NCBI GenBank assembly: GCA_044892505.1
Contig: CM097882.1
Span: 138,136,001-138,200,000 of the forward strand
DNA: 64,000 nt
Direction of reading: 5' to 3'
Origin: Schmidtea nova
Lineage: Eukaryota
In this document: in pieces, positions 17,428 through 40,256 of the stretch
Numbering within the stretch: position 1 is the stretch's first letter
Layout of the letters: each line of letters opens with the position of its first letter
Notes under the pieces: model-generated
What the model was told of the DNA's origin: nothing
Seen by the model: only the letters and a program-made list of their open reading frames with translations
The model's database searches: none
Position numbers and translations under genes: made by a program

Positions 17428-17471
17428 ATTGGTCGGTCTAGACACGACTGATCAGTATAAATACTGATCAG
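17428..17471 (+). promoter_or_regulatory. Putative LTR core promoter: inverted CCAAT (ATTGG) plus TATAAA inside an 11-bp inverted repeat; second copy 42660-42703
   Basis: ATTGG at 17428; CTGATCAGTAT-AA-ATACTGATCAG at 17448-17471; AATAAA ~200 nt downstream. Confidence 0.55.
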
Positions 17472-18907: not shown

Positions 18908-19228
18908 TTGAATCAATGGCCACATGTTTTTTTTAATTTAATAAATGTTTTAAAAAAGGTCTGAAGTGTCTCATTTTGTTAATAGTGTTGTCATGTAGAT
19001 TTAGTATTCTAGTTGTTATAGTCATTAGGAAATTCATTTAATAATCTCAAACTAGTTCAATAAATCCTTTGAGCCTTCAATAAATAGATAGTTAATTAAT
19101 TTTGCAACAAACTTAATAATTAAAAACATTAGTATGCATCTCGTTTAATGATAGTAAATAATAGACTAAATAAAATAACATTGTTGACAGGTCCTCCAGC
19201 GAATTTATCGTTATAATATTCAGACAAC

Positions 19229-19813: not shown

Positions 19814-20378
19814 GAAAACATCCATGTAAAATAACAACCTGTTTTTAGTATTTTAATAAAAGTATTTCTGTGTAAATTTTGTCTCTCATCGGGTGATGTT
19901 ACTAAATGAAATAAAATAACAAAAATGAAATCATCGAAATAAAAAAATATCGCCCCGAAATTTTCTCAAACCGACCGTTTATACGCAGGGACTGATTAAT
20001 TACATTGTAGATCAATTAAGGAAAGTCGTTGGGAAAGGCGTGTGATAGAGCATAAGGATATGTAGTACAAAATTTAGTAGAGCGAACATCCATAGAATGA
20101 AAATGCGTAAGACCTTCTATCGGCAGCAAGGACCCGAGGGAAGATAAATGGGGAGTAGTTTTGGCAACAAAGCTCACCTGCCCATCATTTTTCCCCCACC
20201 GTATGCAGTACCAACTTGACTAGTAGGGAATAGTCAAGGGCATACGCGTGTAGTAGTCATGTTATGTATGGTTATGGGCGTGGAATCCCTAGTATACATA
20301 TTCATCAATAGTCGTTCAATTAATGATTAACTATTTATTTGAATTACTTAAAACCCACCCATAACCCCAGCATAAATT

Positions 20379-20396
20379 TGGGGGCTCAGCCGGGAT
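20379..20396 (+). promoter_or_regulatory. Primer-binding site, tRNA-Pro type
   Basis: TGGGGGCTCAGCCGGGAT matches the canonical tRNA-Pro complement TGGGGGCTCGTCCGGGAT at 16/18 positions, 6 nt after the LTR-terminal CA. Confidence 0.85.
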
Positions 20397-20700
20397 CAAC
20401 TTTGTTTTATGCGGAAAAGGTGAACCCAATGACAACAGAGAAATTTAAAGTCAGAATTTTGTGAGTAGAAATAGTAACCGAAAGAGTAATCGAGATAAAA
20501 GTGAGTTGCGTGGAAATAGATAATTACAGACAGGGAATTAAAACAAATTAGTAGATAAATTGAACAAATGCATTCATAAATAACAGGTCGGGACGACAAT
20601 TTACCGAAACACGGGGGGAGGCTATAAAACTGTCAGAAACGAAAGACAGTACTACTTTTCGAATAATATTAACACAGTAATTAAATAAATTATCTAGGAA

Positions 20701-21162
20701 ATGGAGGAAAAACTGAAAGAAATCGAGGAATTTTTCAACACCGAGAACGATACATTTGAGACAGTCTGCGAAAAAATAACCCGAATAAGAGCATCCGAAT
20801 ATGAGGAACCTACGACACAAACGGAGGAAACAACTGAGTTAATAAAAATCATAGAGAAAGTAAATAAACTCGATATAAATACGCGATATAAATGGTACAA
20901 AGCACGATTAGAGGATGCCGAGTTGAATATCAGATGCCGACATATAGAACAGCAGTTAAGTCTAACATATAACCGATGGATGTCGCAAGGGGTCGAGGCA
21001 GCAAAACAATATAAACAATGTTACATATGCGAAGACAGTGAAATCCAAATAATGTTTTTGCCATGTGGACATTTTCGATTCTGTAAAAACTGTGCGAATA
21101 AGTGTGATGAGTGCCCCATGTGCAGTTTCTCTGTAGCTGATAGAATTGTAGTTTATTTATAA
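20701..21162 (+). CDS. Coiled-coil plus C-terminal IAP-type RING finger (putative E3 ligase) upstream of gag
   Basis: CYICEDSEIQIMFLPCGHFRFCKNCANKCDECPMC...IVVYL: IAP-like C3HC4 RING at the extreme C-terminus. Confidence 0.85.
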   Translation: MEEKLKEIEEFFNTENDTFETVCEKITRIRASEYEEPTTQTEETTELIKIIEKVNKLDINTRYKWYKARLEDAELNIRCRHIEQQLSLTYNRWMSQGVEAAKQYKQCYICEDSEIQIMFLPCGHFRFCKNCANKCDECPMCSFSVADRIVVYL

Positions 21163-22359: not shown

Positions 22360-22909
22360 GTGATCGTCGACGATAATGAGAATAGTGCGCACCAGGAATT
22401 GAGAAATGCGAGTAAAGCTGATTATGCGACCTAAAATAATGCATGCAAGTAGAATCGAGAAATAGGAGCTGACCGGAAAGACCGGCAGAATTAATAATTA
22501 GAGGCTAGCAGAGAGAAAGATAAAGAGATAATAAAATAATAATCGAGTCAAATGACTCAGGGAATTAGAGCGTTCGAACGACAAATAAATTGGGAGACCG
22601 CGGGAAAAATAATTGATGTATTTTAATAACCGATAGATAATTGTTATGACTAAATAGATAATTGTGACTAGTATATAGATAATTTAAATAGACTTAAATA
22701 AAGGGGAATCTGGGAATGGGGAAAAATAATAGAAACCCAGTAATGAGAAGTCCCGTAAAAAGGGAATAAAAGCGCAACGATAACAATAGAGTATCGTTGA
22801 AGTGACATTTGTATTTTAGATAAATCAATCAAACCAAACCAAGCAACCAAGGAAGAAAAGAATCGGAACACGATAAGACAGGAAAATTGAGTATACAAAA
22901 GTAATCCCG

Positions 22910-25900
22910 TTGAGAAAAGGAGAAAAGAGTGTCATAATAAAACCAGCAGAAAAGAATAAAGCTACCAAGAATAATAATCAGAAAGGCCTAAAAGGAAGTA
23001 AAGCAAGGCAGATAATAATACAAAAGTCGATTATCGAAAACGATAAATTATCAGTAACAAGCAACAGTTCAAGCAACAAAGAAAATCAAGCAGAACCCGA
23101 GAGAAACCCAATAAGTGAAATAGAAGTCGACAAAACCAACAACGATTATATAGAAGAAATAGAAGACGAAGTAGAACAAGAAACAGAAAGTGACGATACC
23201 GATAACGATAGTAAAGCATCAGATAACGAATCAGCAAAAGAAACTGAGATCGACCGAAATTCGAGTGACGAACCTAACAGTGAACTAGAAACAAGAGGAA
23301 ACGAAAGTAAAATAACTACAGACAGCGGAATTGAAATGAGCGAACCCAGAGAAGAGATAAAAGACAAATTTTCCGGAGAACCGTTTAATGGAGATGCGAG
23401 TAAATTAGAAACTTTCTTAAAGGAATTTGGCATATTCGTGGAAGTATGCAAGTGGAAACCAGAAACAACTGTAAGCAGAATTCAGCTATATTTAAAAGAT
23501 AGCGCATTAGATCTATATTTGGAAGCAAAAAATGGAATTAATCCACCTACAAGTTGGTCAGCGATAAAGGACTTTTTCCAACAAACCTTCGGAATAAACA
23601 AAGTATTGAATGAGGCATTCACGGAATTCTCAATGAGGAAACAAAAGATAAATGAATCAAATGCGGTATATGCAAGCGAATTAAAAAAGTTGGCAAAGTT
23701 GATTTTCAATCAAGACAGTCCAATAAATGAAGAGTTAATGGCAGCTATCTTTGTGGGAGGATTAAGAAGACCCGACATAAGAGCGCAAGTTGGATGTCAA
23801 GGTTGTAAAACCATCGACCAAGCACTAGAAACAGCTAATAGATTTGAACTACACATGATAGGAAATGACGGTAGAATCTATTTAGCTATGGATACAGCAC
23901 AAAACGAACAAGAAGTGAACCTGAATAACCACATTCCAAATTCACAACAATTAAACCGACCACCACCGCAACGAAGGAATGAAGGGAATAAAGTATCAAA
24001 TTACGGAAATCAAAACAATTACAACCCCCAAGGACCAACGAAACAATGCAAAACATGTGGGAAATTGGGACATTGGCAACAAGAATGTTATCAGAACTTG
24101 AATTGTGGAAAATGTGGAGTAAAAGGGCATTCAGAGAGCAGAGGTTACACAATAACCTGTTTTAATTGTGGACGACCTGGACATCTATCAAGAAATTGCG
24201 GACAAAGAAGCAATCAACGAGGAAACTGGCAGAATACCGGAAACCGACAAAACTATGGAAACCAACCAACTGGTGGAAACCGACAGAATTATGGAAATCA
24301 GCCAAATAATGGAAACCAACCGGAATACGGAAACCAACCAAATAGTAATAATAATAACCAAAATAAAAATACCACTAAAGAGATACATTTAATGCAAGAG
24401 GTTCAAAGATTGACGGAGCTGATAAACAATACAAACAGAGGAAATCAGCAAACAGGTCAACAACAAATCAATATGATGAGAAAAATAGAAAGCGAAAACG
24501 AACAATTGAATCGGGAAAGTCAAGCACGACATGCTCAGGAATGGGCAAGAATACAAAGAGAAGAGGAACAAAAACAGCAAGAAAGAGAACGACAACCTCT
24601 AAGAATTAATATGATGAGAGCAACCAATCAAACAAATACCCACGAGAAAGAGACTGTACCAGAAATAAATCCAACAAACCCGAATCCAACCAACAACGAA
24701 GGCCGAAAAGAGATAATACAAGAAGATGAAGAAGCAGAAAAAGAAACAGAAAAGGAAGTAGAAAAAGAAGGGAACCAAGAAGAGAAAAGGAAACTCGGGA
24801 AAAGAGGAATGATGGTAATTTTGCCAAACAAGCACGTGTTTCGATTCCAATATAACATAAAGGAAGAAGTAGAAATATTGTTCAATAAAGTGAATGAAAT
24901 GGCTCCAGGAGTAACGAAACTGCCCAGAGAAGCATTCCTAAAAATAGAAGGTGCACCAGAAGTAAAATTGAAACTAACGGATACATGGGAAAACATGGGA
25001 GTAGTAGAGACAAAAAGAAATGTGATGGTAATCAAGGAAATAGAACCAGAAGGAATTCCATCGCCAGTGCGTCACGAAACACGAATCAGTCGAATATTTA
25101 AAGGGAAAATGATACGAAGACGGTTGGGAGAAATAGACGAGTTAGAACGAAAAATGAGAAAGGTCGAAGTAGTAGACAACAAGAGTGAATCAACACAAAA
25201 AGCTATTAAAAGTGAAACAAGACCAACGGAAAATACACCAAGCGAAACCAACCAAATAAAACACATTAACATGTTGAGAGGCCAGGCAAAGAATTTTTCA
25301 GACGACGAAGAGGATAGTGACGTCAGTAGTCTAGCAGGGGACATGCTAGACGAACCGGAAATTGAAGACAAAAAGATAGAAGTAGTAAAGACACCAGAAA
25401 CTATTCAAGTAAAAGAAGACGAGATCCAGAAATTATTAGATAATACGCTAGAAGTAATATATAATGAGGAATTCATTGACAAGAAACACTATAGAAAATT
25501 CATGAGAGCAATATTACAAATGAACTATAAAGAGTGGTTACCAGGCCGGGAAGTAGAAACACTAAGCCAATACGTAGGAAAATTATTAAAAGAACCACTC
25601 CATGAATATATAATCCTAATTGAGATAAAAACATGTTTGCCAAGGATTTGGATCAAAACTCCACTCACGGAAGATATTTATCAATGGGTAGAAGATAGAT
25701 TAGGGAGTTCATATAAAAACAAATTCCTCTATTCACAGAATGGACTAGTGAAGAAAAGGACGCATTTGATAGAAACAGGCATATGGCCAGGAGAGGTGAC
25801 AACATTATCGATATGCGATGATAAGAGAGAAGAGAACCTACAAGAAGTAGCAAAGGAAGCAAATATGTGTTTCGAGAAGAAGATAAAACCACGGTTAGAA

Positions 25901-28162
25901 TATGAGAAAGGACGAATCTTACGAGGAAATCTAAATTCCATGATAGAACAAATCATCCCACAAATCAAAAAACATAGAAAGGAGTTAATGAGAAGCGAAT
26001 ACGAAAAGTTGAAACGATGTATCGAGTGCATACGTGACACAAGTCACACGAGATGGTCACAGATCTCATACGGAAAAGTAATTGCCAAAATGGGAAAAGC
26101 AATGTTCAGACAAGGGAAAATAACAGATCTAAAAATTTCAGTGGAATTGCCTAATGAGGATACCAAAGAAATTGAAGTGGTAGCAGATTGTACCATAAAA
26201 GAATTAGTAAATGTCATCAACGAGACACTATTACAAAGAGAACCAGAAGAAGAATGGGAGGATGACATAATCATGAAATATAACGAACATGTATTATGGG
26301 ATCACGATGAAAGACGGCTATATAAAATTGGTATATGGGATAATCACCAAACCATCCACGTTATCAGAATGGACGATACACCAAGAGAAACTGCTAAAGA
26401 TGAGAAAAGAGAACGGGAACGACAAAAAGAAGTTGTGCATAAATTACAACAAATAGTAGACATCTATCGAAATTGGCGGATTTGGCCAGAATGGGAAAAT
26501 GTATTAGAGGAACTCAATCTCAACAGACGATTACGAACACCCGTAGAAAAGAAATGGAACGAACGAGGAAAATGTTGGGAACCAAAAGCAGGCGAATACG
26601 AAGAGGAATACGAAATAAGCATAGAAGACGATCACAAACCGGAAACCGGAAGAGTCTGTATGGTAACAAGAAAAGCCATGCCAGCGGATTTAGACGGACC
26701 AGAAACGGCAACCATGTGGTTGGAAAGAGAAAAACAAAAAACGGAAGAATTTGTCGAAATATTAAAAACCAATGCTCATGGCAAGAGAAAATTAGTAAAA
26801 GGTCTCGCAGATTTTTTCGTAGTTAATGGAGAAGACATAACCTGCCTGCGTAAAGTAGCAAAAGCAATCGCCGAATACAAAAGAGTTAACGAGTGGTGTC
26901 CAGAACAATTGGATCAAGTAATTAAAAAATGGAGAAACCAAGAATTCTCGCAGGAATCGCCACAGAAAGTACACCTAAGAATAGTATATCCGAACCAAGA
27001 AAAGGAAGAGTTTTGGGTAGGGATAGCGGAGAAAGTTCGAGACATTAAAAAGAAATTGAGATATGAACCACCATTCCATTTACAACACCAAGGACGATCA
27101 TTAGATAACAGCTTGGAAATTGGAATAACGCCAGCGCAATTAGATATCGCAAATACATTGACAGTGGCAGCAATAGCAGGTCAACCATTGAAATTGAAAG
27201 AGGAAAAGAAATCAAAAGGAAGTATGAGTACGCCGAGCCCAATGAAATCGGTAATGACTCCAGGAACAAGCTCAGAACAAGCTAGAACAACACCAAGAGA
27301 GACAAGAGAAAGAACACCACCAGAACCATACGACGTAGACGAAATTTTTACAGATAGCGATGATATGTTAGAGGAGTTAATAGAGCTAACAAAAGAGAAA
27401 GATGATAATATTTTCGAAAGAATCCAAGAATTACCAACAGCAATACCGGTAACCAACACCGAAGATGAAGTCGAACAAGAAATAATAATAGAAGAAGTAA
27501 ATGAAATAGCAGAAGAGGAAGCAAGGAGGGCAAATGTAGAAAATGTACAATTCACACAAGAAATGGAAAGATGGTTAGAAGAAAGAGCCAATGAACCAAG
27601 AGACGTCACAGAAGAAACTGGACGAGAATCAAGATTAGTAGAAACGGGCACGACAATGGATAAACGACCTAGAGGTAGACCCAAGATAGATCCAGCAAAT
27701 GTAGTTATAAAATCAAGAGAGGAAAAAAGACGGGATCAATGGGATTTGTGTTTAAAGAAACTAAATAAAATAGCCGAAACGAAAGAAAAAGAAACAACAC
27801 AAACATATCAAGGCGAAGAATGGATATCAAAGATGTTAATGGAAATACTGGCAATAATCGATCCGGAATTAAAAAAATGGTGGAGAATAAATGAAATAAG
27901 CGAAAGGGCGAAATCACTGCATAGCGCCATCGCACCAATCCTACCAGAACTAATAAAAGAGAAGACAAGGTCAAACCACCTAGATTGGCAAGGAACCACG
28001 ATGTTGATAAAGAAGTTAACGGAAGGAGCAGAGACGGATAACAAATATTTAATAGCTATGGCATACACCATTTACAATCTGCTGACACTGAGTAGAGGTC
28101 GACTGAAACCCACAGCACTCGAAAGACATATAAAGAATACAGCCAAAATTATAGAGAAATAA
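22910..28162 (+). CDS. gag: Gag with large C-terminal extension (first ATG at 23336): capsid-like core, CCHC knuckles, Q/N repeats, putative ubiquitin-like domains, AT-hook
   Basis: MSEPREEIKDKFSGEPFNGDASKLETFLKEF gag start; knuckles CKTCGKLGHWQQEC and CFNCGRPGHLSRNC plus one degenerate knuckle; KRPRGRPK. The track start at 22910 is TTG. Confidence 0.9.
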   Translation: MRKGEKSVIIKPAEKNKATKNNNQKGLKGSKARQIIIQKSIIENDKLSVTSNSSSNKENQAEPERNPISEIEVDKTNNDYIEEIEDEVEQETESDDTDNDSKASDNESAKETEIDRNSSDEPNSELETRGNESKITTDSGIEMSEPREEIKDKFSGEPFNGDASKLETFLKEFGIFVEVCKWKPETTVSRIQLYLKDSALDLYLEAKNGINPPTSWSAIKDFFQQTFGINKVLNEAFTEFSMRKQKINESNAVYASELKKLAKLIFNQDSPINEELMAAIFVGGLRRPDIRAQVGCQGCKTIDQALETANRFELHMIGNDGRIYLAMDTAQNEQEVNLNNHIPNSQQLNRPPPQRRNEGNKVSNYGNQNNYNPQGPTKQCKTCGKLGHWQQECYQNLNCGKCGVKGHSESRGYTITCFNCGRPGHLSRNCGQRSNQRGNWQNTGNRQNYGNQPTGGNRQNYGNQPNNGNQPEYGNQPNSNNNNQNKNTTKEIHLMQEVQRLTELINNTNRGNQQTGQQQINMMRKIESENEQLNRESQARHAQEWARIQREEEQKQQERERQPLRINMMRATNQTNTHEKETVPEINPTNPNPTNNEGRKEIIQEDEEAEKETEKEVEKEGNQEEKRKLGKRGMMVILPNKHVFRFQYNIKEEVEILFNKVNEMAPGVTKLPREAFLKIEGAPEVKLKLTDTWENMGVVETKRNVMVIKEIEPEGIPSPVRHETRISRIFKGKMIRRRLGEIDELERKMRKVEVVDNKSESTQKAIKSETRPTENTPSETNQIKHINMLRGQAKNFSDDEEDSDVSSLAGDMLDEPEIEDKKIEVVKTPETIQVKEDEIQKLLDNTLEVIYNEEFIDKKHYRKFMRAILQMNYKEWLPGREVETLSQYVGKLLKEPLHEYIILIEIKTCLPRIWIKTPLTEDIYQWVEDRLGSSYKNKFLYSQNGLVKKRTHLIETGIWPGEVTTLSICDDKREENLQEVAKEANMCFEKKIKPRLEYEKGRILRGNLNSMIEQIIPQIKKHRKELMRSEYEKLKRCIECIRDTSHTRWSQISYGKVIAKMGKAMFRQGKITDLKISVELPNEDTKEIEVVADCTIKELVNVINETLLQREPEEEWEDDIIMKYNEHVLWDHDERRLYKIGIWDNHQTIHVIRMDDTPRETAKDEKRERERQKEVVHKLQQIVDIYRNWRIWPEWENVLEELNLNRRLRTPVEKKWNERGKCWEPKAGEYEEEYEISIEDDHKPETGRVCMVTRKAMPADLDGPETATMWLEREKQKTEEFVEILKTNAHGKRKLVKGLADFFVVNGEDITCLRKVAKAIAEYKRVNEWCPEQLDQVIKKWRNQEFSQESPQKVHLRIVYPNQEKEEFWVGIAEKVRDIKKKLRYEPPFHLQHQGRSLDNSLEIGITPAQLDIANTLTVAAIAGQPLKLKEEKKSKGSMSTPSPMKSVMTPGTSSEQARTTPRETRERTPPEPYDVDEIFTDSDDMLEELIELTKEKDDNIFERIQELPTAIPVTNTEDEVEQEIIIEEVNEIAEEEARRANVENVQFTQEMERWLEERANEPRDVTEETGRESRLVETGTTMDKRPRGRPKIDPANVVIKSREEKRRDQWDLCLKKLNKIAETKEKETTQTYQGEEWISKMLMEILAIIDPELKKWWRINEISERAKSLHSAIAPILPELIKEKTRSNHLDWQGTTMLIKKLTEGAETDNKYLIAMAYTIYNLLTLSRGRLKPTALERHIKNTAKIIEK

Positions 28163-28240
28163 ATAGAACCGTACATCATCAGTAAAGGAGGATGGGAAAC
28201 ATTCACAAAAACGAACCAAAAGAAAACCCAAGCCAAAAAT

Positions 28241-31200
28241 ATGAAAAGGAAATTCGAAGAGATATTGGGAGAATTGGAAAAGGAAAAGTCGGGAACAGGA
28301 AACGGGAAATCATCACTAAACTTGAGTTCTATCATTATGATGATGTTAATATGGATGATTAGTACTGACGGAGCAACAGCATTTGAAGTATTCGATTGTG
28401 ATCAAATGGCATTAGGTGAGAAATATTCACTACGAGGGACAGAACAATGTAAGGACGCAACCCCAACGGAGCTAAAAACATTAAAAAAGAGACAATTATA
28501 CCACGTATATCAGGAAGCTGAACTGATAAGAACAATGGTCAGAGAATGCAAAGTTTATAAAACCAGATTTGCTTTTTATTGTGGGCACCGCCATTATTCA
28601 GCAATCGTGATGCCAGGAACGGAAAGAGAATCGGTAATGCTGCAAGGAGAAGACTGTGAAAAATTATTTAAACATGGGGAAGTAGAGACTAGAGATAGAG
28701 TAAAGATAAGAGGAAAAACGGGAGTGATATTGCAACAAACATATTATGTAGCAGGAGCTATTACGGGAGGAGAAGGGTACTGCCAAGGAGCAACATATCC
28801 AATATTCGGAGTAGCAGCAACAAACCTAGTGGTAATAGATACGTATACAGTGGAACTAAAAACGTACGAGGCATTCTTCGATCCAACGACGGGAGAAATG
28901 AAAACTCTACCTATGTGCAAAATCGAGTCAAACACTTGTCAGACTGGTATGTCAACCCTAACCTACCAGATACGAGGAAAGGAATGTCAACTACAACTGT
29001 TAAAGGAAGCAGAATTCGATGAGATACAAGGGAAAACCTTCCAGGAGGAAGAAGAAGACGAGGCAGCAAGAGGAAAAATACTTCAAGACACAGTACGAGG
29101 AGAGAAAAAGATTGAAACACGAACACAAGAAAAGCAAATCAAAATGAGAAATACACCAACGGTACTAATTACCTCAGATGCAGATATCGGAATGAGGTTT
29201 GTAAAAGGAAAAACAGCCTTGAAATGCGGAGTAGCCATGTTGGAAACCAACTACCCCGGCATTTTCGTATCGAAACAAGAAGTACCTAGTGCGAAACGCA
29301 AAGTGCACACGAACGATGTTAAATTACACCTGTACATGAACAATAAAATGGATTTTCTATTCCATAGAGGACAAGCGTCACTACAAAAAGTGTATTACGA
29401 TTTAATTAACAACGATTGCATATTAAATAGGGAAATATTAAAGACAAAATTAGCAGTTGCAATCACAAACCCGGATTGTGCAATGCCATTATTACCATTG
29501 AGAGAAGGTCATTTTGGAAGGGTAGTCGGAGAAGTCATGTATGTATACATATGTAAAAAGACAAATGCGAAGGTAGCGACAATGACAAAATTACAACCAG
29601 GGCAGTGTACTAACGAACTAGAAATCGAATACAAAGGGAAGGTAAGATATGTGCAACCAGTGACAAGAATCATAAATCCAGTAAGCTTCGAACCAAATCC
29701 TTTCAATTGCAGCAACGCATATGGACCACTATACCAAAAACCAGACGGAAATTGGGTTATGTTTCCGTCAAGAACAGAGGTACCAGCACCAAGGGAATTT
29801 GAATTGATGCAACTATCAAAAGGACGAAAATTTAAAGACGTAGATGTAAGTAATATGGGATTCTATAGCGCAAAAGACTTAGAGGCAGCGAGGCAAAACA
29901 TACTATTTCCAGCAAGAAGGGAAGCGGTGCTATCCAGTATTGTAACAATAACAGGAGGAACAAATTACCAAGGTGGACCAAATTACGAATTATTATTGTC
30001 ACCAGCCCACTTTAAGAAGGCAACGGAAAACATGATGAAAGCGATGTGGGGAAGATTTTTAATATTTGGACAAATGATGGCAGGAATACTTGGTGTTATA
30101 CTAATTATACAAATAATACGGGTAATAATAACGCAAATGTTAGCCTGTTTTGACATCTATAAAAGAGAAAAGAAAGTAAATTGGAAATTGGTGGTAGGAT
30201 TCTTACCATTTTTGGCTAAAACAATGGTATTACACGGTCATTCAAAAGATATTCACCGAATAAAGAGACTCCTAAAAATACTGGCAAAAATGAAAGGAAC
30301 CGATGAAGAGGTGGGACGAAAATTTAAAAAGATAATGAATAACGAGCAAGCAAGACAACAACTAAAGAAAGAGAGAAAAGGACTATGGGAAAGAATGAAA
30401 GGGTACAGAACCCAAGACGATTCCAGTGACGACGATGATGATGATAACGAAGGAGGTCAAGTATTTAAAAATCAAGTACCACAGTATGTCGAAAAGAATC
30501 CAGCGGAAATGTGGAAATGTTACGCACCCCCACCAACCATGTACCAAGAACCAACACCAGGGATGAGACAAAATACAATGCAAATGATGCCGATGACAAA
30601 CATATATCCTATGATACCAGAAGACTATAGAACGAGACGGTGCAGAAGCGTAGATCCGCAAGGAGACTCACATACAATTGCAGTAATGTCATCAAACACC
30701 GGTCCAGTATTAACTACAACAATCGAAATTAACGGAAGGGAAATTGAAGCGATGATTGATACAGGAGCAAATATCTCAGCAATAGATATAAAATGGATAC
30801 CACAAGAACAAAGACGGGATATTGAGAGAACCAACGTTCACGTAATAGCATGCAGTAAAGAAGTAGTAGAAGTTGCCGGAAGATGGTGGGTAAAGATAAA
30901 ACATCAAAACACAGAAATCGAAACGTACGTAGCAGTAATACCAGCACTGAGCGTACCATGCATTATAGGCACAGATTTAATGCCAGCATTATTTAAAGAA
31001 ATAGTTATTGACCTCGGAACAATGAGATTAAAGGATAGGACAGGACAGATATGCGCAATAGAAGCAAAAGTAACAAGTTCGAAACAAATAATTGTACCAG
31101 CACGGAGAGAGAAAATATGTTTCGTAAAAATAGATCCTACAATAGAAGGTGATATGATCTTTGAACCCAGTAAAAGATTTGAAAAGAGAAAGTCGTTGCC

Positions 31201-34200
31201 AATGGCAAGGGGATTAGTGAGTGCGAATGACAACGGAGAAATCCCAATAAATGTAGTAAATTTCGATGAAGAGGATAAAATAATTTATGAAAACGAAAGA
31301 CTAGGTAAACTAACTCCAATGATAGATATCGAAATACCAATAAAAGAAGGAGTAAAAGAGGAGGAACCCACTTGGAACATTGATAGCCAACTATTAAATG
31401 AGGACCAAAAAAAACAGCTAGAAAGATTACTGATAGAATATAAAGACATATTCGCAGCATCCGATTTAGATCTAGGGACATGCGACGTCACACTACATAC
31501 GATTCCACTTACAGACGAAACGCCGATTGCGTTAAGACCATACAAGTTAGCTGAAGCGCAAAAATCAGTAGCCGAAGCAGAAGTACAGAAAATGCTAGAC
31601 GCAGAAGTAATTGAACCAAGCTGCTCACCGTGGCAATTCCCAGTTGTAATGGTGAAAAAGAAAGACGGAACACAACGATTTTGTATTGATTATCGGAGAT
31701 TAAATGCGGTAACAAAACGGGATACATACCCATTACCAGACATCAACGAGATGTTATTGACATTACAAGGAGCGGCATACTTTACATCATTAGATTTGAA
31801 AAGCGGATACTGGCAAATTAAAATGAAGGAAGAAGACAAAGAGAAAACTGCTTTCACGATCGGAAGAGACTTGTACCAATTTAGGAAAATGCCATTCGGA
31901 CTAACCAATGCGCCAGCATCATTTCAAAGATGTATGAATTTCGTTACCCACGGCATAAAACAATGCATGGTTTACATTGACGACCTACTGATCTACTCAA
32001 GCACATTTGAACAACACATCCAAGATATCAGAGATGTATTTGTTAGATTGAGACAATGGAAACTCAAGCTCAAACCATCGAAATGCGATTGGGCAAAAGA
32101 GAAAGTGACATTCTTAGGACATATTGTGTCCGCAAAAGGAAAGGAACCAGATCCCAGAAACATTGATAAAGTAAAAGAATGTCCAGTACCAAAGACGATA
32201 ACGCAGATCCAAGAATTTCTCGGATTATGCGGTTACTATAGAAAATTCATAAAGGATTACGCAGGAATTGCAAAACCAATCCAGGAGCTAGTAAAGAAAG
32301 ACGTATCGTTCATATGGGGAAGCGAACAACAAACAGCCTTCGAAACATTACGAGATAAGTTAATAACTGCACCAATATTGGTTCACCCGGATTTCAAGAA
32401 GCCATTTTTACTCGCAACCGACGCAAGTGGATATGCAGCAGGAGCAGTGTTAGGACAATATGATGACGAGGGAAAAGAGCGGGTAATCGGATATTATAGC
32501 AGAACATTCAAGAAACACGAGAAGAATTATTCAGTAACGGAAAGAGAAGCATTGGCAATAATATTAGCAATAAAACACTTTAAATATCTATTATGGGGAC
32601 ACGTTATATGCATAACCACGGATCATCAACCACTGGTATGGCTAGGACAACATAAGGAAACATCCAGCAGGTTGATGAGATGGGCGATGCAATTACAAGA
32701 ATATTCACCAGATATAAAATTCAAATCAGGAAAAGCGAATGCCAACGCAGATTGCATGTCAAGATTAACGTTTCCAGAATTAACAGACCCAGAAGTGCAA
32801 AGAATATGCATAATGATAGCAGAGGATTTGGATTTCAGCGAGTTAAAGAAAGATCAGCAAGAGGATAAAGAACTAAGACCCATCATAGAATTCCTAAGCT
32901 CACGGAATATGGATGTATTCAAAGACAATGCGGAGTTAAAAGAACACATGAGGAAATACCAACATCGATACACAATAGAAAAAGGATGGTTATTAATACA
33001 GGATGGAGAAAAACGATTAATGTGTCTGCCAAGTAATAGACGAAAAGAGATAATAACTCAATACCATGACGGAAAGTTGGGAGGACACATGTCCGATAAG
33101 AAAACATTAGATCGCATGAGACAAAAATATTATTGGCCAACAATGGACGAGGACGTAAAGGAATGGATAAAGAACTGTTTAACTTGTGCCACAAGAAAGG
33201 ATAGTGGGAAGAAATGGAAAAATCCCTTAAAACCCATGCCAATACCAGCGGAACCAATGACTACCATTGCGATGGATGTAATAGGACCATTGCCAGAAAG
33301 TTTAAACTGGAATCAATATATATTGGTAATAACGGATTATTTGACGAAATTCCCTGAAGCATTTGCGATGCCGGATCAAAAAGCAAAGACCGTAGCAAGA
33401 ATTTTAGTAGAGGAAATATGTTGTCGATACGGAACCCCGAAACAAATACTAACAGATCAAGGAACAAATTTTATGAGCGAAATATTAGATGAAGTAACAA
33501 ATTACTTCAGAATAGCCAAATTACGAACGTCACCATATCATCCGCAAACTAATGGACAAACGGAAAGATTTAACGGCACATTGATTCGAATGTTATCCAA
33601 TTATGTAAGCAAACACCAAACAGATTGGGATGAGTACATAAAGCTATGTCTAATGGCATACCGAATGTCGATACACGCAGCAACAAAATTGAGTCCATTT
33701 CAATTAATGTATGGAAGGGAATGCAATATGCCAATAGATCTTGAATATCAACCACCTTTGTCTCAATATATGGAGGAAGATGATTACGTCACCAAATTCA
33801 AAGAACGAATGCAAGAGATATGGAAGACAGCAGAACTAAACATAAAGTTTTACCAAGAAAGTTACAAGGACCTACACGATCAAAAGAAAAATGTTAAAAC
33901 AAATGATCTTAAACCCGGAGATTGGGTAATGATAGAAACCCCAGAAATAATACCAGGAACCGTTAAAAAACTACAAAGACCAGGAAAAGGCCCTTACGAA
34001 GTTATATACAAAAAGGAAAACAATGTGAAGGTAAAACTTGTTAATCGACCATTGATACGACCAATATACGTTAATACATGCAGATGTAAAAAAGTACCAA
34101 AGACAATAACCACAGCGCCAGAAGAACGAATAATAACCAGATCCCAGACAGCCAGAATGAATATGCTCAGAGCAACCAATGAAAGTACCGAAGCAGAAAA

Positions 34201-37200
34201 CAATCAACAAGAAAAAAGAAACAAGGAAATTGTACTAAAAGCCAGGGAAATAATGGGAAAATGGCATGTCAGAGACGATATATTAAGAGATATACAATTG
34301 ATAATTAGTGATTACGCAAGGGGACTACCAACAAAACCAGTCATTTCAGAACTATTGGAGAAAATTCCAGAAATACTTTCACTACAAGACATAGGAGGAC
34401 AACCAGCATTACATAACGCCATAAAATGGGGAGAAGTAGAGAGAGTAAAAGAATTTCTAAAAATCGCTAAGGAAACAAACCAACACCTTGGTTTTGGGAA
34501 TAGCGAACAAGAAACACCATTAATGGTAGCAGCCATCTACAAATCGGATAAAGCAATAATAGACCTTTTGATAAATGCCGATTTCAACTGGACGGAACGC
34601 GATAGAGAAAACAAAACAGTCTTGAATCACGCAATATGGAGCTCAAATCAGATAATGCTCAAACAAATAATCGAGAAGGCCACTTGGGAAATAGACGAAC
34701 TGATCAAAGGTGATATAATCAAGGAGGCAATAAAAATCGGTAACTGCAAAACAATACGCAAGCTAATAAAGTGGAAAAGATCCGAAAATGATACATGGGT
34801 ATTAAATATAAACGAGGTATACAGTGAAGGACAAAACGCGTTATTACAATTCCTATTAAAATTCGTCTGTGATCAGAAAACACTGTTAACGCTATTAGAT
34901 AGAGGAAATATCATAATGTCCAAAAACAAAGAGGAGTGTAAATTCAAAAGTGAAAAAGAAGCATTATTCAGGAATATTAGGGAATGGTGTACAAAATCGC
35001 TAACCAAGACGATAACTTACAAAGATATATCCAATTTTCAAGACAAATACAAAACGGTGGAGGAGGAGTATGACAAACTAATAGACATATTAAACCACCC
35101 CGAAAGATGCAAACAATTCCTATGTCGAAAGGAAAGAGAAAGCAAAAGGAAATTTACACCACTTTTCAGCGCAGAGGTACCTTATCAAGAAAGGTTAGAT
35201 GCGATACAGGACAAAGCAAAAAAACTATTACCAGAATTCGAAAATTCTAAACATACACTGGAGATACTCGGAGCAATTGTGGAAAAGATACACGCATATG
35301 CGGAAGGAACCTACAATGAAAACGATATGATGCTCATAAAAAGAGAAATGCCAGTGACTTTCTTATTAACAAAGAATGGAGTATTGCCAATACATAGAGC
35401 CTTACGAGCAGGAAAAGATAGGAGGGTAGTCGAAATTGCACGGTTGATGCAAGATTGCGGAAGTGACATGAACATGAAAGATAAAAAGGGAGATACCCTC
35501 ATGATATTCGCAGCAAGAGCGAACACAAAAACCCGAGTGTTACAGGAACTGTACGAAGCAGGTGCAGGACTCATGGGAAGAACGAACAAAGACAGCTCAA
35601 TACTAGACGTAGCGTTGTTAACGCACAATTGGGAGGTAATAAACTTTATAAAAACAATCACAAATCAGGAGGAAATAGAATACCTTACAAGGATAGTTAA
35701 AAAAGCTAGCGTACATTCCATGATGCATAACGCTGAACTAACCGAAGCAATACTCAATTGGATGAACCCAAACACCAATGAACCAGCATTCAGGATCAAC
35801 GAGTTCATGGAACAAGGCCAAAATTTGTATATAAAGTGTGCATTAATAATAAACAAATGGCCAAAGATAATAGACATCTTCATGAGAAGAAAAGATTTGC
35901 GATTCACAAACAACCCAAAGGAAACAGAACGTACGGACAAATGGAAAGAACTAATGAAAACGTACCTTAATAATTGGATAAAAGCCAAGAAAGAGATTCT
36001 AGATTGTAAATTAACCGATAAGGAAATACCTAAGCAGGCAGTAACACAAGAATATGAAGCAAGTATACTCACAACCATAACGTATGAAAAAATGATAGAA
36101 GCAATTAATGTCGAGGACGACATTTTCAACGACCAAAGGGGAGGCGACAATACAGGAAACGACGACGATAGTACTCGAGAAAATCCAGAGGATCATGAGT
36201 TATCAGATGAAGAGGACAGTGAAGAGAAAGGAAGGGACACAGAGAAAAATGATAAGAAAAATGAATTTGGGAAACAAAGAAACAACAACTATAAAAATAA
36301 AAACGAAGCAAAAAGAACAAGCTACAAACAAACAATAAATCCATTCTTTAAACCAGAACTATTATTACTAACGGTAATCATGACCTTAATTAGTCCCACT
36401 CAAGGAATGATATGTGAAGAAAGAACGACAATACAAATTGGAAACGCAAAAGGAATCGAACGAGTATGTTGGTCAAAAAAGGACAAAATATCGGGACAAA
36501 ATAGTCCAATGGATTGCAGGATCTCAGAATACGAACAAGAAATCATAGAGATCGATGACCTAGAGCTAGATACTTGGTACAGAATGTGCACCGTTCGGAA
36601 ACCAAAGGATCCGAGATCACATAAGACAATTGCATGTGCAAACTACCTAACACCCAAAATAACCATAACAGTACAGCAGACATCCAAAGGAGACTACGCC
36701 GTAGGAAAGTGTGGAAAAACAGAGACCCAAGGAACAAAAAACAAAAAACCCCAGACAATAGATAGACGAACAACGCCAACTATACGAATTACCATAGACA
36801 GGCCCGAAGCAAGAGTAACCACAAATGAAACCAAAAGAGTGACCTACCAAACAGAATTACTATGTTTAGCACTCATATTAACAATGTTAAAACGGTTAGA
36901 AGAAGGGATAGACATTGACACAATGGCAGTAACAGAGATGAACGACACCCAAAACACCAACCCAAAGTGTTGGGCCAGAAGCAACGAAGAAATTGGCGTA
37001 AGCGAAATAAAGACGAGTCGGAAAAGGAAAACAAATAAAGTAACCAAGATATCAGAAGTAAAAGCAGACAGGACGTATGAACTATGTTTACTAGAAAAAG
37101 AAAGACACAAGAAAGGAACGACAATTTGTAAAACATTTCAACCTGGGGAAACAATAAAGTTCATAAGACGAGGAAGAAAAAATATACGCACCAAACGGAG

Positions 37201-38299
37201 AACAACTATAATGTTAGAGTTAACCGGGATAGAACCGGACGTCAAAGGCGTATGCTGGAAGAAGCAGGAAAAGAAAACAAACCAGAATACACCGCCGCAA
37301 TGTCGAACAAACAGAGGAACAACCACAATACAGATAGAAGGGTTAGAAAGTAATCAAACGTACGAAATATGCCTGATCAGGAAGAGCGACAAAATAACAG
37401 TAAATGAACTGGAATGCAAAATATATAAAACACCCAGCAGAACAAGAATTGGAAAGACAACGCGAAAAAGCAGAAGACAACGGAACAAAGGAAAAGCGAG
37501 GTATACCACTACTTTTGAACCTAATGGACAACAGAAAAACCAAGAAATACAAATAAGAACCGAAAAGAATACTACAGCAACTCTTATACTATGGAGAATA
37601 GACAATAAAACGTTAGAAATATGTTGGGCAGTAGTTCAGGAACAAAAAGAAAGACAGCCACGATCCTGCGAAAACGTAAAAGGAAAAGAAGAAATGAGTA
37701 TCAAAAATCTGAAATTTAATAGAGAATACGAGATATGTGCGGTAGAAAAGACGGACATATTGGGAAATCAGCAGGAAAGATGCGAAACGTACTACACACC
37801 GGTAAACTCAACGTCCAAAGGGAAAGTGAGAAAACTCGAATTTAAAGAATTAAGTCAGACAACGAAACAAATGGACGCAGAACAAGTAGTAATAGACCCT
37901 TACGCAAGATGGACGCCGGAAGAAGTAATTAAAGAAGTTAAAAGAAAACAACAAGAACGAGAACAACTACTAAATAAACTAAAGGGACAATACGGACCAA
38001 TGATTAACCAGAGTGAAATTACGAAGATGGACGTAAACAAACAAGTTAGAGAACTAATTGGTCTAGGAATACTAGCAGCAACTATTCCAGTAATAACAGT
38101 ATTATTAATAATATGGATATATGATGTATTCAACAAGAAACCAATAACACATTGGCCAGATATAAAAATTATGAACTACAGAATAGAATTACCGGAAGAA
38201 GTACAGAAAGAATTTCAAAGGAGGACGAAAGGCAAGGAATTTTGGAGACAAATAGAAGATGAGGAGCGATACGAAGGAAAGACAGTGATGGTGATATAG
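28241..38299 (+). CDS. pol: 3352-aa polyprotein: Env-like glycoprotein, protease, RT, RNase H, integrase, ankyrin repeats, FN3-like type I membrane protein
   Basis: MIDTGAN (30758), YIDD (31973), LLATDASG, HDGKLGGH...CLTC, MDVIGPLP/TDQGT/NGQTERFN, GKGPY, ankyrin motifs, and several hydrophobic segments. Confidence 0.95.
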   Translation: MKRKFEEILGELEKEKSGTGNGKSSLNLSSIIMMMLIWMISTDGATAFEVFDCDQMALGEKYSLRGTEQCKDATPTELKTLKKRQLYHVYQEAELIRTMVRECKVYKTRFAFYCGHRHYSAIVMPGTERESVMLQGEDCEKLFKHGEVETRDRVKIRGKTGVILQQTYYVAGAITGGEGYCQGATYPIFGVAATNLVVIDTYTVELKTYEAFFDPTTGEMKTLPMCKIESNTCQTGMSTLTYQIRGKECQLQLLKEAEFDEIQGKTFQEEEEDEAARGKILQDTVRGEKKIETRTQEKQIKMRNTPTVLITSDADIGMRFVKGKTALKCGVAMLETNYPGIFVSKQEVPSAKRKVHTNDVKLHLYMNNKMDFLFHRGQASLQKVYYDLINNDCILNREILKTKLAVAITNPDCAMPLLPLREGHFGRVVGEVMYVYICKKTNAKVATMTKLQPGQCTNELEIEYKGKVRYVQPVTRIINPVSFEPNPFNCSNAYGPLYQKPDGNWVMFPSRTEVPAPREFELMQLSKGRKFKDVDVSNMGFYSAKDLEAARQNILFPARREAVLSSIVTITGGTNYQGGPNYELLLSPAHFKKATENMMKAMWGRFLIFGQMMAGILGVILIIQIIRVIITQMLACFDIYKREKKVNWKLVVGFLPFLAKTMVLHGHSKDIHRIKRLLKILAKMKGTDEEVGRKFKKIMNNEQARQQLKKERKGLWERMKGYRTQDDSSDDDDDDNEGGQVFKNQVPQYVEKNPAEMWKCYAPPPTMYQEPTPGMRQNTMQMMPMTNIYPMIPEDYRTRRCRSVDPQGDSHTIAVMSSNTGPVLTTTIEINGREIEAMIDTGANISAIDIKWIPQEQRRDIERTNVHVIACSKEVVEVAGRWWVKIKHQNTEIETYVAVIPALSVPCIIGTDLMPALFKEIVIDLGTMRLKDRTGQICAIEAKVTSSKQIIVPARREKICFVKIDPTIEGDMIFEPSKRFEKRKSLPMARGLVSANDNGEIPINVVNFDEEDKIIYENERLGKLTPMIDIEIPIKEGVKEEEPTWNIDSQLLNEDQKKQLERLLIEYKDIFAASDLDLGTCDVTLHTIPLTDETPIALRPYKLAEAQKSVAEAEVQKMLDAEVIEPSCSPWQFPVVMVKKKDGTQRFCIDYRRLNAVTKRDTYPLPDINEMLLTLQGAAYFTSLDLKSGYWQIKMKEEDKEKTAFTIGRDLYQFRKMPFGLTNAPASFQRCMNFVTHGIKQCMVYIDDLLIYSSTFEQHIQDIRDVFVRLRQWKLKLKPSKCDWAKEKVTFLGHIVSAKGKEPDPRNIDKVKECPVPKTITQIQEFLGLCGYYRKFIKDYAGIAKPIQELVKKDVSFIWGSEQQTAFETLRDKLITAPILVHPDFKKPFLLATDASGYAAGAVLGQYDDEGKERVIGYYSRTFKKHEKNYSVTEREALAIILAIKHFKYLLWGHVICITTDHQPLVWLGQHKETSSRLMRWAMQLQEYSPDIKFKSGKANANADCMSRLTFPELTDPEVQRICIMIAEDLDFSELKKDQQEDKELRPIIEFLSSRNMDVFKDNAELKEHMRKYQHRYTIEKGWLLIQDGEKRLMCLPSNRRKEIITQYHDGKLGGHMSDKKTLDRMRQKYYWPTMDEDVKEWIKNCLTCATRKDSGKKWKNPLKPMPIPAEPMTTIAMDVIGPLPESLNWNQYILVITDYLTKFPEAFAMPDQKAKTVARILVEEICCRYGTPKQILTDQGTNFMSEILDEVTNYFRIAKLRTSPYHPQTNGQTERFNGTLIRMLSNYVSKHQTDWDEYIKLCLMAYRMSIHAATKLSPFQLMYGRECNMPIDLEYQPPLSQYMEEDDYVTKFKERMQEIWKTAELNIKFYQESYKDLHDQKKNVKTNDLKPGDWVMIETPEIIPGTVKKLQRPGKGPYEVIYKKENNVKVKLVNRPLIRPIYVNTCRCKKVPKTITTAPEERIITRSQTARMNMLRATNESTEAENNQQEKRNKEIVLKAREIMGKWHVRDDILRDIQLIISDYARGLPTKPVISELLEKIPEILSLQDIGGQPALHNAIKWGEVERVKEFLKIAKETNQHLGFGNSEQETPLMVAAIYKSDKAIIDLLINADFNWTERDRENKTVLNHAIWSSNQIMLKQIIEKATWEIDELIKGDIIKEAIKIGNCKTIRKLIKWKRSENDTWVLNINEVYSEGQNALLQFLLKFVCDQKTLLTLLDRGNIIMSKNKEECKFKSEKEALFRNIREWCTKSLTKTITYKDISNFQDKYKTVEEEYDKLIDILNHPERCKQFLCRKERESKRKFTPLFSAEVPYQERLDAIQDKAKKLLPEFENSKHTLEILGAIVEKIHAYAEGTYNENDMMLIKREMPVTFLLTKNGVLPIHRALRAGKDRRVVEIARLMQDCGSDMNMKDKKGDTLMIFAARANTKTRVLQELYEAGAGLMGRTNKDSSILDVALLTHNWEVINFIKTITNQEEIEYLTRIVKKASVHSMMHNAELTEAILNWMNPNTNEPAFRINEFMEQGQNLYIKCALIINKWPKIIDIFMRRKDLRFTNNPKETERTDKWKELMKTYLNNWIKAKKEILDCKLTDKEIPKQAVTQEYEASILTTITYEKMIEAINVEDDIFNDQRGGDNTGNDDDSTRENPEDHELSDEEDSEEKGRDTEKNDKKNEFGKQRNNNYKNKNEAKRTSYKQTINPFFKPELLLLTVIMTLISPTQGMICEERTTIQIGNAKGIERVCWSKKDKISGQNSPMDCRISEYEQEIIEIDDLELDTWYRMCTVRKPKDPRSHKTIACANYLTPKITITVQQTSKGDYAVGKCGKTETQGTKNKKPQTIDRRTTPTIRITIDRPEARVTTNETKRVTYQTELLCLALILTMLKRLEEGIDIDTMAVTEMNDTQNTNPKCWARSNEEIGVSEIKTSRKRKTNKVTKISEVKADRTYELCLLEKERHKKGTTICKTFQPGETIKFIRRGRKNIRTKRRTTIMLELTGIEPDVKGVCWKKQEKKTNQNTPPQCRTNRGTTTIQIEGLESNQTYEICLIRKSDKITVNELECKIYKTPSRTRIGKTTRKSRRQRNKGKARYTTTFEPNGQQKNQEIQIRTEKNTTATLILWRIDNKTLEICWAVVQEQKERQPRSCENVKGKEEMSIKNLKFNREYEICAVEKTDILGNQQERCETYYTPVNSTSKGKVRKLEFKELSQTTKQMDAEQVVIDPYARWTPEEVIKEVKRKQQEREQLLNKLKGQYGPMINQSEITKMDVNKQVRELIGLGILAATIPVITVLLIIWIYDVFNKKPITHWPDIKIMNYRIELPEEVQKEFQRRTKGKEFWRQIEDEERYEGKTVMVI
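28331..30231 (+). other. Env-like domain: chuvirus/Monjiviricetes-type fusion glycoprotein with signal-like and transmembrane segments
   Basis: IIMMMLIWMI...ATA|FEVFDC; YSL...C; ECKV...R...YCG..HYS; AG...G.G.C.G..Y; CG...ETNYP; LYMNNKMDF; C...REILKTKL; GEVMYVYIC; CTNEL; ILFPARREAVL; TM FLIFGQMMAGILGVILIIQII. Motif and Cys order recognised by eye. Confidence 0.75.
34390..35660 (+). other. Ankyrin-repeat region downstream of integrase
   Basis: GQPALHNAIKWGE, ETPLMVAAIY, KTVLNHAIW, VLPIHRALRAG, GDTLMIFAARAN, SSILDVALLTHN. Confidence 0.8.
36353..38130 (+). other. C-terminal membrane protein: signal-like segment, four Cys-containing FN3-like repeats, TM anchor
   Basis: PELLLLTVIMTLISPTQG; four repeats of the form xCW...(C)...I..L....Y.(I/L/M)C...C; TM LIGLGILAATIPVITVLLIIWIY. 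Confidence 0.65.
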
Positions 38300-38781: not shown

Positions 38782-38872
38782 ATAAATAAAGCGAAAAATT
38801 GTAAATATGTAAAAACAAAAACAAGAAAAATCAAAAAATAGATAACAAATCAAGTGTATATATCATTGTAGA

Positions 38873-40256
38873 ATGAATACAGAAGGAAAAGCCGAAGAGC
38901 GGATAATCGAAATTTTGAGAGCCGAGAACAGGAAATGGAGTCAGAGACTCACTTGTGTAAATTGTAAAAACATAATATTGAAACCAAGACAAACCCTATG
39001 CGGATGCAGAGTATGTACCAAATGCATACACGAGTTAAGTATGAAAAGACCACCAGAATGTCCAGAATGCAAAGAAGGACAAATAAAATTCGAAGAAACC
39101 GGACCAGATAGAGCAACTCAGAGAGAAATCATGAACACGAAAACCGAATGTATAAATCAACCATGTATATGGCAAGGACAAATACGCGATCTCGAGAACC
39201 ATCTGGAGAACTGCGAAGAGAAGAGAACTGAATGTAACAAATGCCAACAAAAAATAACTATAAAGAATAAAGAGCAGCACAAAGATGAATGTAAAGAAGA
39301 GGAAAGTCTATGCGAATATTGTGGAACTCGAGAAACGAGGAGAAAGATCGAAGAAGAACACCTGAATGTAAAAGAGGAGAAAGTATGTAGACAATATGTA
39401 GGAATATGTTCAAACGAATGCGAGATAACGGTAGAAGTAAAATTACAAGAACATTGGAAAGTGTGCACGGAGAAACCAAGGGAATGTCCTTATAACAAAC
39501 AGGGATGTATGGAGAAAAGAACGCAAAAAAACCATGAAACAACATCTGGAGGAAGCATTGCTAAAGCATGCGGAAATGACAAACGAAGCAACAAAAGAAA
39601 CCGAACAAACAATCAAAAAATTAGAAAGAGAAATAGAGTCACACAAGATAATGGTAAACCTACTGTTGGAAACCAGAGAGCAATTCGAACTAACACGAGA
39701 AAAGATGGAGGAAAAGATAAAAGCTATCGAAGAATTGGCTAAAGGAATGAAAATCCAGTACAACAAACTCACCCAGGATACCGAGGAAAAGTTGCCAATC
39801 GCACCCTATGTGTGGAAAGTGACAGATTTTAGAGACAAATTAACAGAGGCCAGAAATATGACGAAAACAGCAGTAATAAGCCCACCATTTTATTTATGGA
39901 GAAACGGAGCTAAAGTGAGATTGAAGCTATACCCAAATGGAGACGGAAGAGGACGAGGAACACATGTGTCAATATTTTTCTCGCTATGTAAAAGAGAATA
40001 CGACGACCTAGTAGAATGGCCCTTGAAAGTAGGAGTCATTATAAGAATCAGAAGTGTAGCAAAACCAGTGGAAAAATTCTTTGAGACAGAGAAACATGCG
40101 AGTACGAGCGAGAAACCAACCACAGAATGTGGATTAGCAGCGGGAGAACCGATGTTTATAACGAAAGAAAGCTTATGGGAACGATTATATGCAGACACCC
40201 TATACATAGAAATGGAAAGGAATGAGAAAGCGGATAGAAAAGGATGGTTGACGTAA
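38873..40256 (+). CDS. TRAF: Intronless TRAF-family protein (RING, TRAF Zn fingers, coiled coil, MATH) with one frameshift in an A7 run
   Basis: CVNC...CGCRVCTKC...CPEC RING; ECINQPCIWQG...LENHLENC Zn fingers; YVWKVTDF...SPPFY...KLYPNGDGRGRGTHVSIFF...YDDLVEWP MATH. Removing one A from 39525-39531 joins the two ORFs as EKRTQKTMKQHLEE. Confidence 0.9.

Follow-up and report, generated by a model that had tools for sequence, protein, structure and literature searches.

The locus and its polyprotein frame

The window analyzed here is a stretch of 64,000 nucleotides of the Schmidtea nova genome (assembly GCA_044892505.1, contig CM097882.1, positions 138,136,001 to 138,200,000 of the forward strand), and all positions are counted from its first letter. 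It contains a giant long terminal repeat (LTR) element of 28.5 kb at 17062-45604, which belongs to a multicopy family and carries gag followed by env and then pol. An open frame of 3,378 codons (28163-38299), with a methionine at 28241, holds env through pol. It is directly preceded by a 1,761-codon frame (22877-28162) with the gag part, which ends at an in-frame stop at 28160-28162. The coding region is composed of the following parts.

22877..28162, plus strand: N-terminal portion of the polyprotein, containing Gag; first Met at 23336; two CCHC knuckles; ends at the copy-specific stop
28066..28210, plus strand: weak Bcl-2-like (BH2-type) stretch, spanning the copy-specific stop and ending about 40 amino acids before the signal segment
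28322..28381, plus strand: internal signal sequence by hydropathy (hydrophobic part about 28322-28372), kept in 57 of 57 sister copies
28382..30073, plus strand: predicted class III (gB/chuvirus G-type) fusogen ectodomain, 564 amino acids with 15 Cys, by PF24664, AlphaFold2, and Foldseek
30074..30142, plus strand: predicted Env transmembrane helix, Kyte-Doolittle peak of 2.57 over 19 amino acids
30176..30238, plus strand: second hydrophobic stretch of the W-x-L...G-x-x-P type, with weaker hydropathy and an approximate insertion free energy (dG) of +7.2
30239..30715, plus strand: charged, predicted cytosolic linker from Env to the protease
30716..34000, plus strand: Ty3/gypsy Pol with protease (DTG at 30758), reverse transcriptase (YIDD at 31973), RNase H, integrase HHCC, rve, and GPY (33989)
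34400..35660, plus strand: ankyrin-repeat region past the integrase (approximate end), Ank_2 E value of 3.3e-13 in three stretches, the best at 34409-34678
36359..38299, plus strand: second predicted type I membrane protein, with a signal-like segment (36359-36406), about four FN3-like repeats, a transmembrane segment (38057-38125), and a short tail

Env is predicted to be a class III fusogen

The Pfam search of the env frame yields the Monjiviricetes_fusion family (PF24664) with 240 bits against a cutoff of 27 and an E value of 4.9e-71, a match that, judged by its score, lies far beyond chance. It is followed in the same frame by RVP, RVT_1, RT_RNaseH, Integrase_H2C2, rve, and Ank. The AlphaFold2 model of Env, based on a 113-row alignment, has a predicted local distance difference test score (pLDDT) of 89.7 and a predicted template modeling score of 0.74 and includes a 48-residue helix. 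The top Foldseek matches in the BFVD viral library are chu-like and related Monjiviricetes glycoproteins, with a best E value of 6e-37 and a TM score of up to 0.70, and all 35 PDB matches listed are herpesvirus gB, the best with an E value of 2.5e-13. The VIA comparison of the model gave a Z score of 10.0 with a root mean square deviation of 7.7 Å over 433 aligned residues. The PDB sequence search with the ectodomain returned nothing at an E value of 1, so that gB is reached by the fold search only. Env is thus a predicted class III fusogen with the gB/chuvirus-G fold, which is characterized by a beta-rich fusion domain, a long central helix, a crown domain, and a C-terminal arm.

A first-pass annotation, made from the sequence alone, had described a signal-like segment, a Cys-patterned ectodomain of about 570 residues, and a transmembrane segment in this region, and had named the protein a chuvirus-like fusion glycoprotein whose fold should be compared with viral fusogens. 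These parts are all found, and the fold comparison agrees with the assignment. The same holds for the Gypsy lineage proposed there: the best PDB sequence match for Pol is the Ty3-G Gag-Pol protein (E value of 1.3e-120), and none of the 19 Pfam matches at an E value of 0.1 belongs to a BEL/Pao family. By these sequence matches, the Pol backbone is Ty3/gypsy, not BEL/Pao.

Gag, Env, and Pol share one frame in the sister copies

The family was searched for in the AT-rich genome to which it belongs (1.25 Gb), with 3,165 candidates, of which 118 are scored matches. We fetched 60 of the 118 (rows 2 to 41 and 92 to 111), of which 57 contain the anchor motif and 3 do not. The stop at 28160-28162 is found in none of these 57 assessable sister copies. 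Among the 82 closest matches, 23 lie in a frame whose length is exactly 5,140 codons from stop to stop, the sum of 1,761, 1, and 3,378, and 35 have frames of at least 5,060 codons. In 55 of the 57 copies, the frame continues without a stop across the junction between gag and env, over more than 80 codons before the start of mature Env, and in nearly all copies it does so over more than 200 codons; the run from Env to the protease is free of stops in 55 of 57. Contigs from two runs of one study, possibly of the source sample and not independent support, also span the stop site without a stop.

Despite the sampling bias considered below, it is safe to say that the stop is a lesion of the window's copy and that the family has the order gag-env-pol in one frame. 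The first-pass annotation was right about this order and about the join of env to the DTG protease, which recurs in the sister copies, but the start that it gave to the gene, 28241, is not that of the family. It missed that Gag lies in the same frame in the sister copies and that a second predicted membrane protein stands at the end of the polyprotein. As the stop is missing from all 57 copies, the signal-like segment of Env is internal to one polyprotein, and with Gag in the same frame, synthesis would be 1:1:1 for Gag, Env, and Pol.

Related subfamilies in the same genome have modal frames of about 4,118, 5,115, and 5,641 codons. In other families there, this Env family is found again, in frames that are 3,393 to 3,401 codons long.

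Signals, transmembrane segments, and predicted topology

The signal and transmembrane segments were called by hydropathy, and insertion dG was approximated with a position-independent scale. For the internal signal, cleavage is predicted after A-T-A and before F-E-V-F-D-C. The small residues and the signal-like segment before FEVFDC are kept in all 57 sister copies, and a comparable h-region precedes [AG][YF]DC in the 15 distant homologues listed. Hydropathy gave no hydrophobic peak in the Gag part. The Env transmembrane helix has an approximate dG of -0.2 and basic residues on its C-terminal side.

The first-pass annotation had also pointed to a second hydrophobic stretch (30187-30231) that made the topology uncertain. 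The segment is conserved and hydrophobic, but a second transmembrane helix at 30176-30238 was rejected on its dG of +7.2 and on the 13 polyprotein homologues, which have a median dG of +5.9, none under 2, and keep the Pro in 12 cases. The stretch is likely associated with the cytosolic face of the membrane without spanning it, since with a second crossing the reverse transcriptase and integrase would come to lie in the lumen, a position at odds with what they do.

The Bcl-2-like stretch just ahead of the signal matches only Bcl-xL chains in the PDB (E value of 1.7, and 37 of 37 matches with a best E value of 0.56), and its match to the Pfam family Bcl-2 (E value of 0.11) is under the cutoff. 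The BH2-like motif is absent in the 14 distant homologues checked, and a homologue search with the segment among longer proteins found none, which says little. The succession of BH2-like motif and Env signal (28066-28381) is the arrangement of a Bcl-2 domain with its tail anchor.

A second predicted membrane protein at the C-terminus

The pattern of a membrane protein after the ankyrin repeats is present in three subfamilies, with a ratio of nonsynonymous to synonymous divergence (dN/dS) of about 0.2, and a second signal and transmembrane segment are found in three of three distant relatives that run past the integrase. For its ectodomain, all 10 ESM Atlas matches listed are fn3, with scores of 0.80 to 0.82 only, and a homologue search among longer proteins found none, again a result of little weight. 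The ectodomain looks, on this slight and model-based evidence, FN3-like.

The region 36359-38299 diverges faster than Env, with 52 to 72% identity between subfamilies. The window's copy is 94 to 96% identical to its siblings here, compared with 99 to 100% in Env. This lower identity may reflect recombination.

Selection and relatives of Env

Relative to a subfamily that is 84% identical, rough dN/dS values are 0.06 to 0.07 for the Env ectodomain, 0.01 to 0.02 for the transmembrane region, and 0.01 for the reverse transcriptase. The linker at 30239..30715 has a dN/dS of 0.07 to 0.15 between subfamilies. Between subfamilies, the Env transmembrane helix and the second hydrophobic stretch are 95 to 97% identical and the ectodomain is 79 to 84% identical. 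These sequence comparisons indicate strong purifying selection on the Env ectodomain.

A scan of 1.84 billion representative sequences with Env gave 822 matches at an E value of 0.001. The best matches, mostly at 36 to 48% identity, are polyproteins or fragments, and most free-standing glycoproteins of about 650 amino acids share 20 to 29% identity with Env. Among 20 long or partial matches examined, 12 have a protease and/or reverse transcriptase in frame downstream, 5 of them together with an upstream CCHC knuckle; in all, a CCHC knuckle lies in frame upstream of Env in 6 of 20 distant matches. The relatives P0001, P0002, P0003, P0006, and P0017 carry two to four tandem retropepsin-like domains after Env.

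A FastTree phylogeny was made from the window's Env and 123 of the 150 listed matches, leaving out 27 that cover less than 200 amino acids; it is midpoint rooted and has no host labels, and P0004 is labeled free-standing by its length despite an internal signal. All 13 polyprotein rows fall within one 20-row group with an SH-like support of 94. The tree, which the first-pass annotation had proposed as a check, does not support the independent capture suggested there: the grouping of the polyprotein Envs speaks against a capture that only this element underwent and is silent on the direction of transfer.

Proposed synthesis and assembly

With high confidence, we regard the element as a giant Ty3/gypsy element of the kind described as Burro (Arkhipova and Yushenova 2019, PMC6431247), with gag, a predicted class III Env, and pol in one frame, and its product as likely being a polyprotein threaded through the endoplasmic reticulum. 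This reading builds on the observed domain order, the continuous frame of the sister copies, and the purifying selection, and also on the predicted gB/chuvirus-G fold. The Gag part would be synthesized in the cytosol. The internal signal would then insert, and cleavage by host signal peptidase ahead of FEVFDC would leave the Gag-side fragment anchored by the signal and Env in the lumen. Next, the Env transmembrane helix would stop transfer and thereby keep the linker, protease, reverse transcriptase, RNase H, integrase, and ankyrins in the cytosol, attached to Env. The second internal signal would export the FN3-like ectodomain with its own transmembrane segment. Finally, the element's protease would set capsid and enzymes free at the membrane. 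An enveloped particle would form there and would use a trimeric Env to fuse with another cell. The tethering of Pol to the membrane until protease cleavage is a reasonable proposal.

A more specific version can be put forward tentatively, and we stop a little short of leaning toward it. Here, the product would be a flavivirus-like four-pass polyprotein with two internal signals at which host signal peptidase cleaves, and capsid and enzymes would thus be tethered to the budding membrane. Two surface proteins, the class III fusogen and an FN3-like attachment protein, would be produced in a 1:1 ratio to Gag and Pol, and the signal of Env would double as the tail anchor of the Bcl-2-like domain.

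Several points weigh against these proposals. The fetched copies are the best-scoring rows, which biases the share of open frames upward, and dS between subfamilies is about 1.4, near saturation, so that the dN/dS values are rough. Both signal segments score only marginally (dG of about +2.5), and their calls rest on hydropathy and the approximate scale. The whole Env ectodomain has a single N-glycosylation sequon, and the AlphaFold2 model of the C-terminal ectodomain, which matches FN3 proteins with an E value of 1.2e-6, is of low confidence (pLDDT of 48). Equimolar Gag and Pol are poor for capsid building, and some correction is needed. As for the kinship with Burro, the ORF with TRAF/MATH lies upstream in the element described in PMC6431247 and downstream here, and the interval between protease and reverse transcriptase (31013-31402), where a dUTPase-like domain is published for Burro, gave no Pfam match at an E value of 10; for this domain, the Burro section of PMC6431247 relied on HHpred.

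Env might no longer serve an extracellular particle but be retained to anchor the product in the membrane, or as a cell-cell fusogen by which capsids move straight from a cell to its neighbor. We consider this unlikely, although several observations fit it. The transmembrane and cytosolic stretch is more conserved than the ectodomain (95 to 97% compared with 79 to 84%), a second adhesion-like surface protein would suit spread by cell contact, and the entry mechanism of gB-type elements is stated as unknown in the main text of PMC13524379 (Chary and Hayashi 2026). However, strong purifying selection acts over the entire ectodomain, and the predicted fold is that of a class III fusogen with all its parts. 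This excludes a role as anchor alone and leaves direct cell-cell spread unaffected.

Alternatively, Env-Pol could also or mainly be made from a spliced subgenomic RNA starting at Met 28241, which would make the signal N-terminal and decouple Gag. All 57 sister copies retain this methionine, as does a third subfamily. Of the 7 accessory ATGs that were checked, 6 are preceded by a YAG at a distance of no more than 5 nucleotides, so that the element probably does splice. Yet the methionine sits in a segment that is conserved as a whole, and no YAG stands directly ahead of it, which counts for little since the gag methionine has none either. Together with a frame that stays open for more than 200 codons upstream in nearly all copies and the in-frame upstream CCHC knuckle in 6 of 20 distant matches, this makes the subgenomic route improbable.

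That this Gypsy lineage captured a chuvirus glycoprotein recently and independently could be argued from the closest viral neighbors in structure and sequence, which are chu-like glycoproteins. In addition, the elements with the order GAG-ENV-POL are non-monophyletic in Pol (PMC13524379, main text), which implies several rearrangements or captures somewhere. The nearest relatives (36 to 48% identity) are nevertheless Envs embedded in polyproteins, or fragments, with most free-standing glycoproteins at 20 to 29%; the polyprotein Envs (13 of 13) share one tree group, and other families of the same genome have the same Env family in their 3,393- to 3,401-codon frames. Such a capture thus appears very improbable.

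Programmed read-through of the stop at 28160-28162, which would set the ratio of Gag to Env-Pol as in gammaretroviruses, was rejected and is hardly credible unless the unscored candidates include a young subfamily with this stop: the stop is in frame and does split gag from env-pol in the window's copy, but none of the 57 sister copies has it, it interrupts the Bcl-2-like stretch, and this copy has another private lesion in its TRAF gene.

Element boundaries and accessory genes

The boundaries and the genes outside the polyprotein frame are as follows.

16163..17061, plus strand: 899-nucleotide duplicate, by self-BLAST, of the internal 3' end (41395-42293), placed before the 5' LTR
17062..20372, plus strand: 5' LTR, 3,311 nucleotides with TGTTGGG...CCCAGCA ends, near-identical to the 3' LTR
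20379..20396, plus strand: primer-binding-site-like 18-mer, 6 nucleotides past the 5' LTR
20698..21162, plus strand: accessory ORF with an IAP-like C3HC4 RING (PF13920, E value of 9.9e-12)
38846..40256, plus strand: accessory TRAF-like gene (RING, zinc fingers, coiled coil, and MATH; MATH_2 E value of 4.7e-21)
42294..45604, plus strand: 3' LTR, with limits from target-site duplications of sister copies and self-comparison

Self-BLAST of the window shows a repeat at 16163-20373 and 41395-45605 of 4,211 nucleotides with 99.93% identity and three mismatches. This first estimate of the LTR length was rejected after mapping of the target-site duplications, as 4-bp duplications bound the LTRs in 10 of 10 sister copies checked and place the limits at 17062-20372 and 42294-45604, giving an element of 28.5 kb. 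Inspection of the flanks of the window's own copy revealed no target-site duplication, compared with one in each of the 10 sister copies. The 899-nucleotide duplicate without such a duplication is probably what is left of an insertion that was tandem or rearranged. The primer-binding-site-like 18-mer is putatively of the tRNA-Pro type. No tRNA genes were found in the window.

Each LTR contains two ORFs of 173 and 198 codons (18386-18907 and 19217-19813, again at 43618-44139 and 44449-45045), which have no match in a Pfam search. The leader between the RING ORF and gag (21638-22380) holds three tandem repeat arrays with units of about 30, 40, and 43 to 55 nucleotides. The giant element is flanked by smaller LTR elements on the minus strand at about 619-6170 and 52980-59457, with repeats of about 1 kb and 0.92 kb and ORFs of up to 1,053 codons.

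In the Gag part, Pfam finds zf-CCHC in two stretches (E value of 3.2e-7) and a ubiquitin-like module at about 26130-26345 (Ubiquitin_4, E value of 0.034, under the cutoff). The upstream RING ORF matches RING only, with no match to a BIR domain. The TRAF-like gene is split over two frames in the window's copy, and its RING and MATH share one frame in 10 of 10 sister copies. Further 3' accessory ORFs at 38422-38781, 40346-41434, and 41496-42089 are coiled-coil-like, the last with a hydrophobic segment; 10 of 10 sister copies retain the first two. The window's copy is young, but it bears damage in the form of a private stop ahead of env and a TRAF gene that is split.

Comparison with known systems

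In flavivirus and alphavirus polyproteins, internal signals and host signal peptidase free the glycoproteins, and the upstream protein stays anchored in the membrane. These viruses do not reverse-transcribe, and the fusogens of flaviviruses, alphaviruses, and foamy viruses belong to class II or class I. We liken these polyproteins, as well as the Env leader peptide of foamy viruses, to the element only in the inferred mode of working and claim no homology. Closer in its glycoprotein is Anakin, a group of mosquito BEL/Pao elements that Dezordi et al. reportedly described in 2020 as carrying a chuvirus glycoprotein. Its glycoprotein is of the same gB-like family, whereas its backbone is BEL/Pao and the Pol here is Ty3/gypsy.

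Burro elements, also GYPSM1, are giant Ty3/gypsy elements of planarians, and knock-down of piwi raises the RNA of BURRO1 in Schmidtea (PMC8532177). The Burro section of PMC6431247 describes a Burro-like element of Dugesia tigrina with a 5,140-amino-acid ORF1, in which env lies in frame between gag and pol, and reports for Burro a BCL2-like motif before Env, a ubiquitin/SUMO-like motif, and a dUTPase-like domain. The element in the window resembles it in its size of about 30 kb and in its one huge ORF (5,140 amino acids there, 5,140 codons from stop to stop here). The domains also correspond: a Gag with two CCHC knuckles, an in-frame Env, the succession of protease, reverse transcriptase, RNase H, and integrase, ankyrins, and an accessory TRAF/MATH gene. 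Candidate ubiquitin-like and BCL2-like stretches stand at the place expected from Burro, between Gag and Env, with matches under the cutoffs. The likeness to the named Burro elements rests on this description rather than on a direct sequence comparison. The published dUTPase-like domain was not detected here by Pfam, and the RING ORF has no BIR match. That section is silent on internal signals, topology, a C-terminal membrane protein, and the fusogen class.

In the main text of PMC13524379, GAG-ENV-POL elements with a gB-type Env are reported from Nematoda, Bryozoa, and Platyhelminthes, an ancient association is argued, and the chuvirus-like glycoprotein of mosquito BEL/Pao elements is also found beside a gypsy Pol. 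Its Smed_errantivirus_1-6 resemble our element in having a Ty3/gypsy Pol, a gB-like Env between gag and pol, and multiple copies. By eye, the Env domain I-II rows shown for them have the same Cys spacing and motifs as the window's Env, Smed_5 and Smed_6 looking closest. The host of the window is not among the nine flatworm elements listed. The words "polyprotein," "fused," and "ankyrin" do not occur in that main text, and a single-polyprotein topology is not discussed there. The four-pass topology was found neither in these parts of the two papers nor in literature searches, and Grohme 2018, Sacco 2022, Lee 2026, or the supplements may describe it.

An in-frame chuvirus/gB-type env between gag and pol of a Gypsy element, which the first-pass annotation had presented as new, is therefore already known, having been in print since 2019 (PMC6431247) and generalized in 2026 (PMC13524379). 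What our analysis adds is the order inferred from the sequence, in which a cytosolic Gag would be followed by an internal signal, a luminal Env, a transmembrane helix, a cytosolic Pol, a second signal, an FN3-like ectodomain, and a final transmembrane segment. Its remaining value is mechanistic and concerns the assembly and entry of gB-type errantiviruses, for which this young high-copy family leads to specific predictions: signal peptidase would cleave at two sites, Pol would be tethered to the membrane, the juxtamembrane stretch would not span it, and the second surface protein would be a candidate for attachment.

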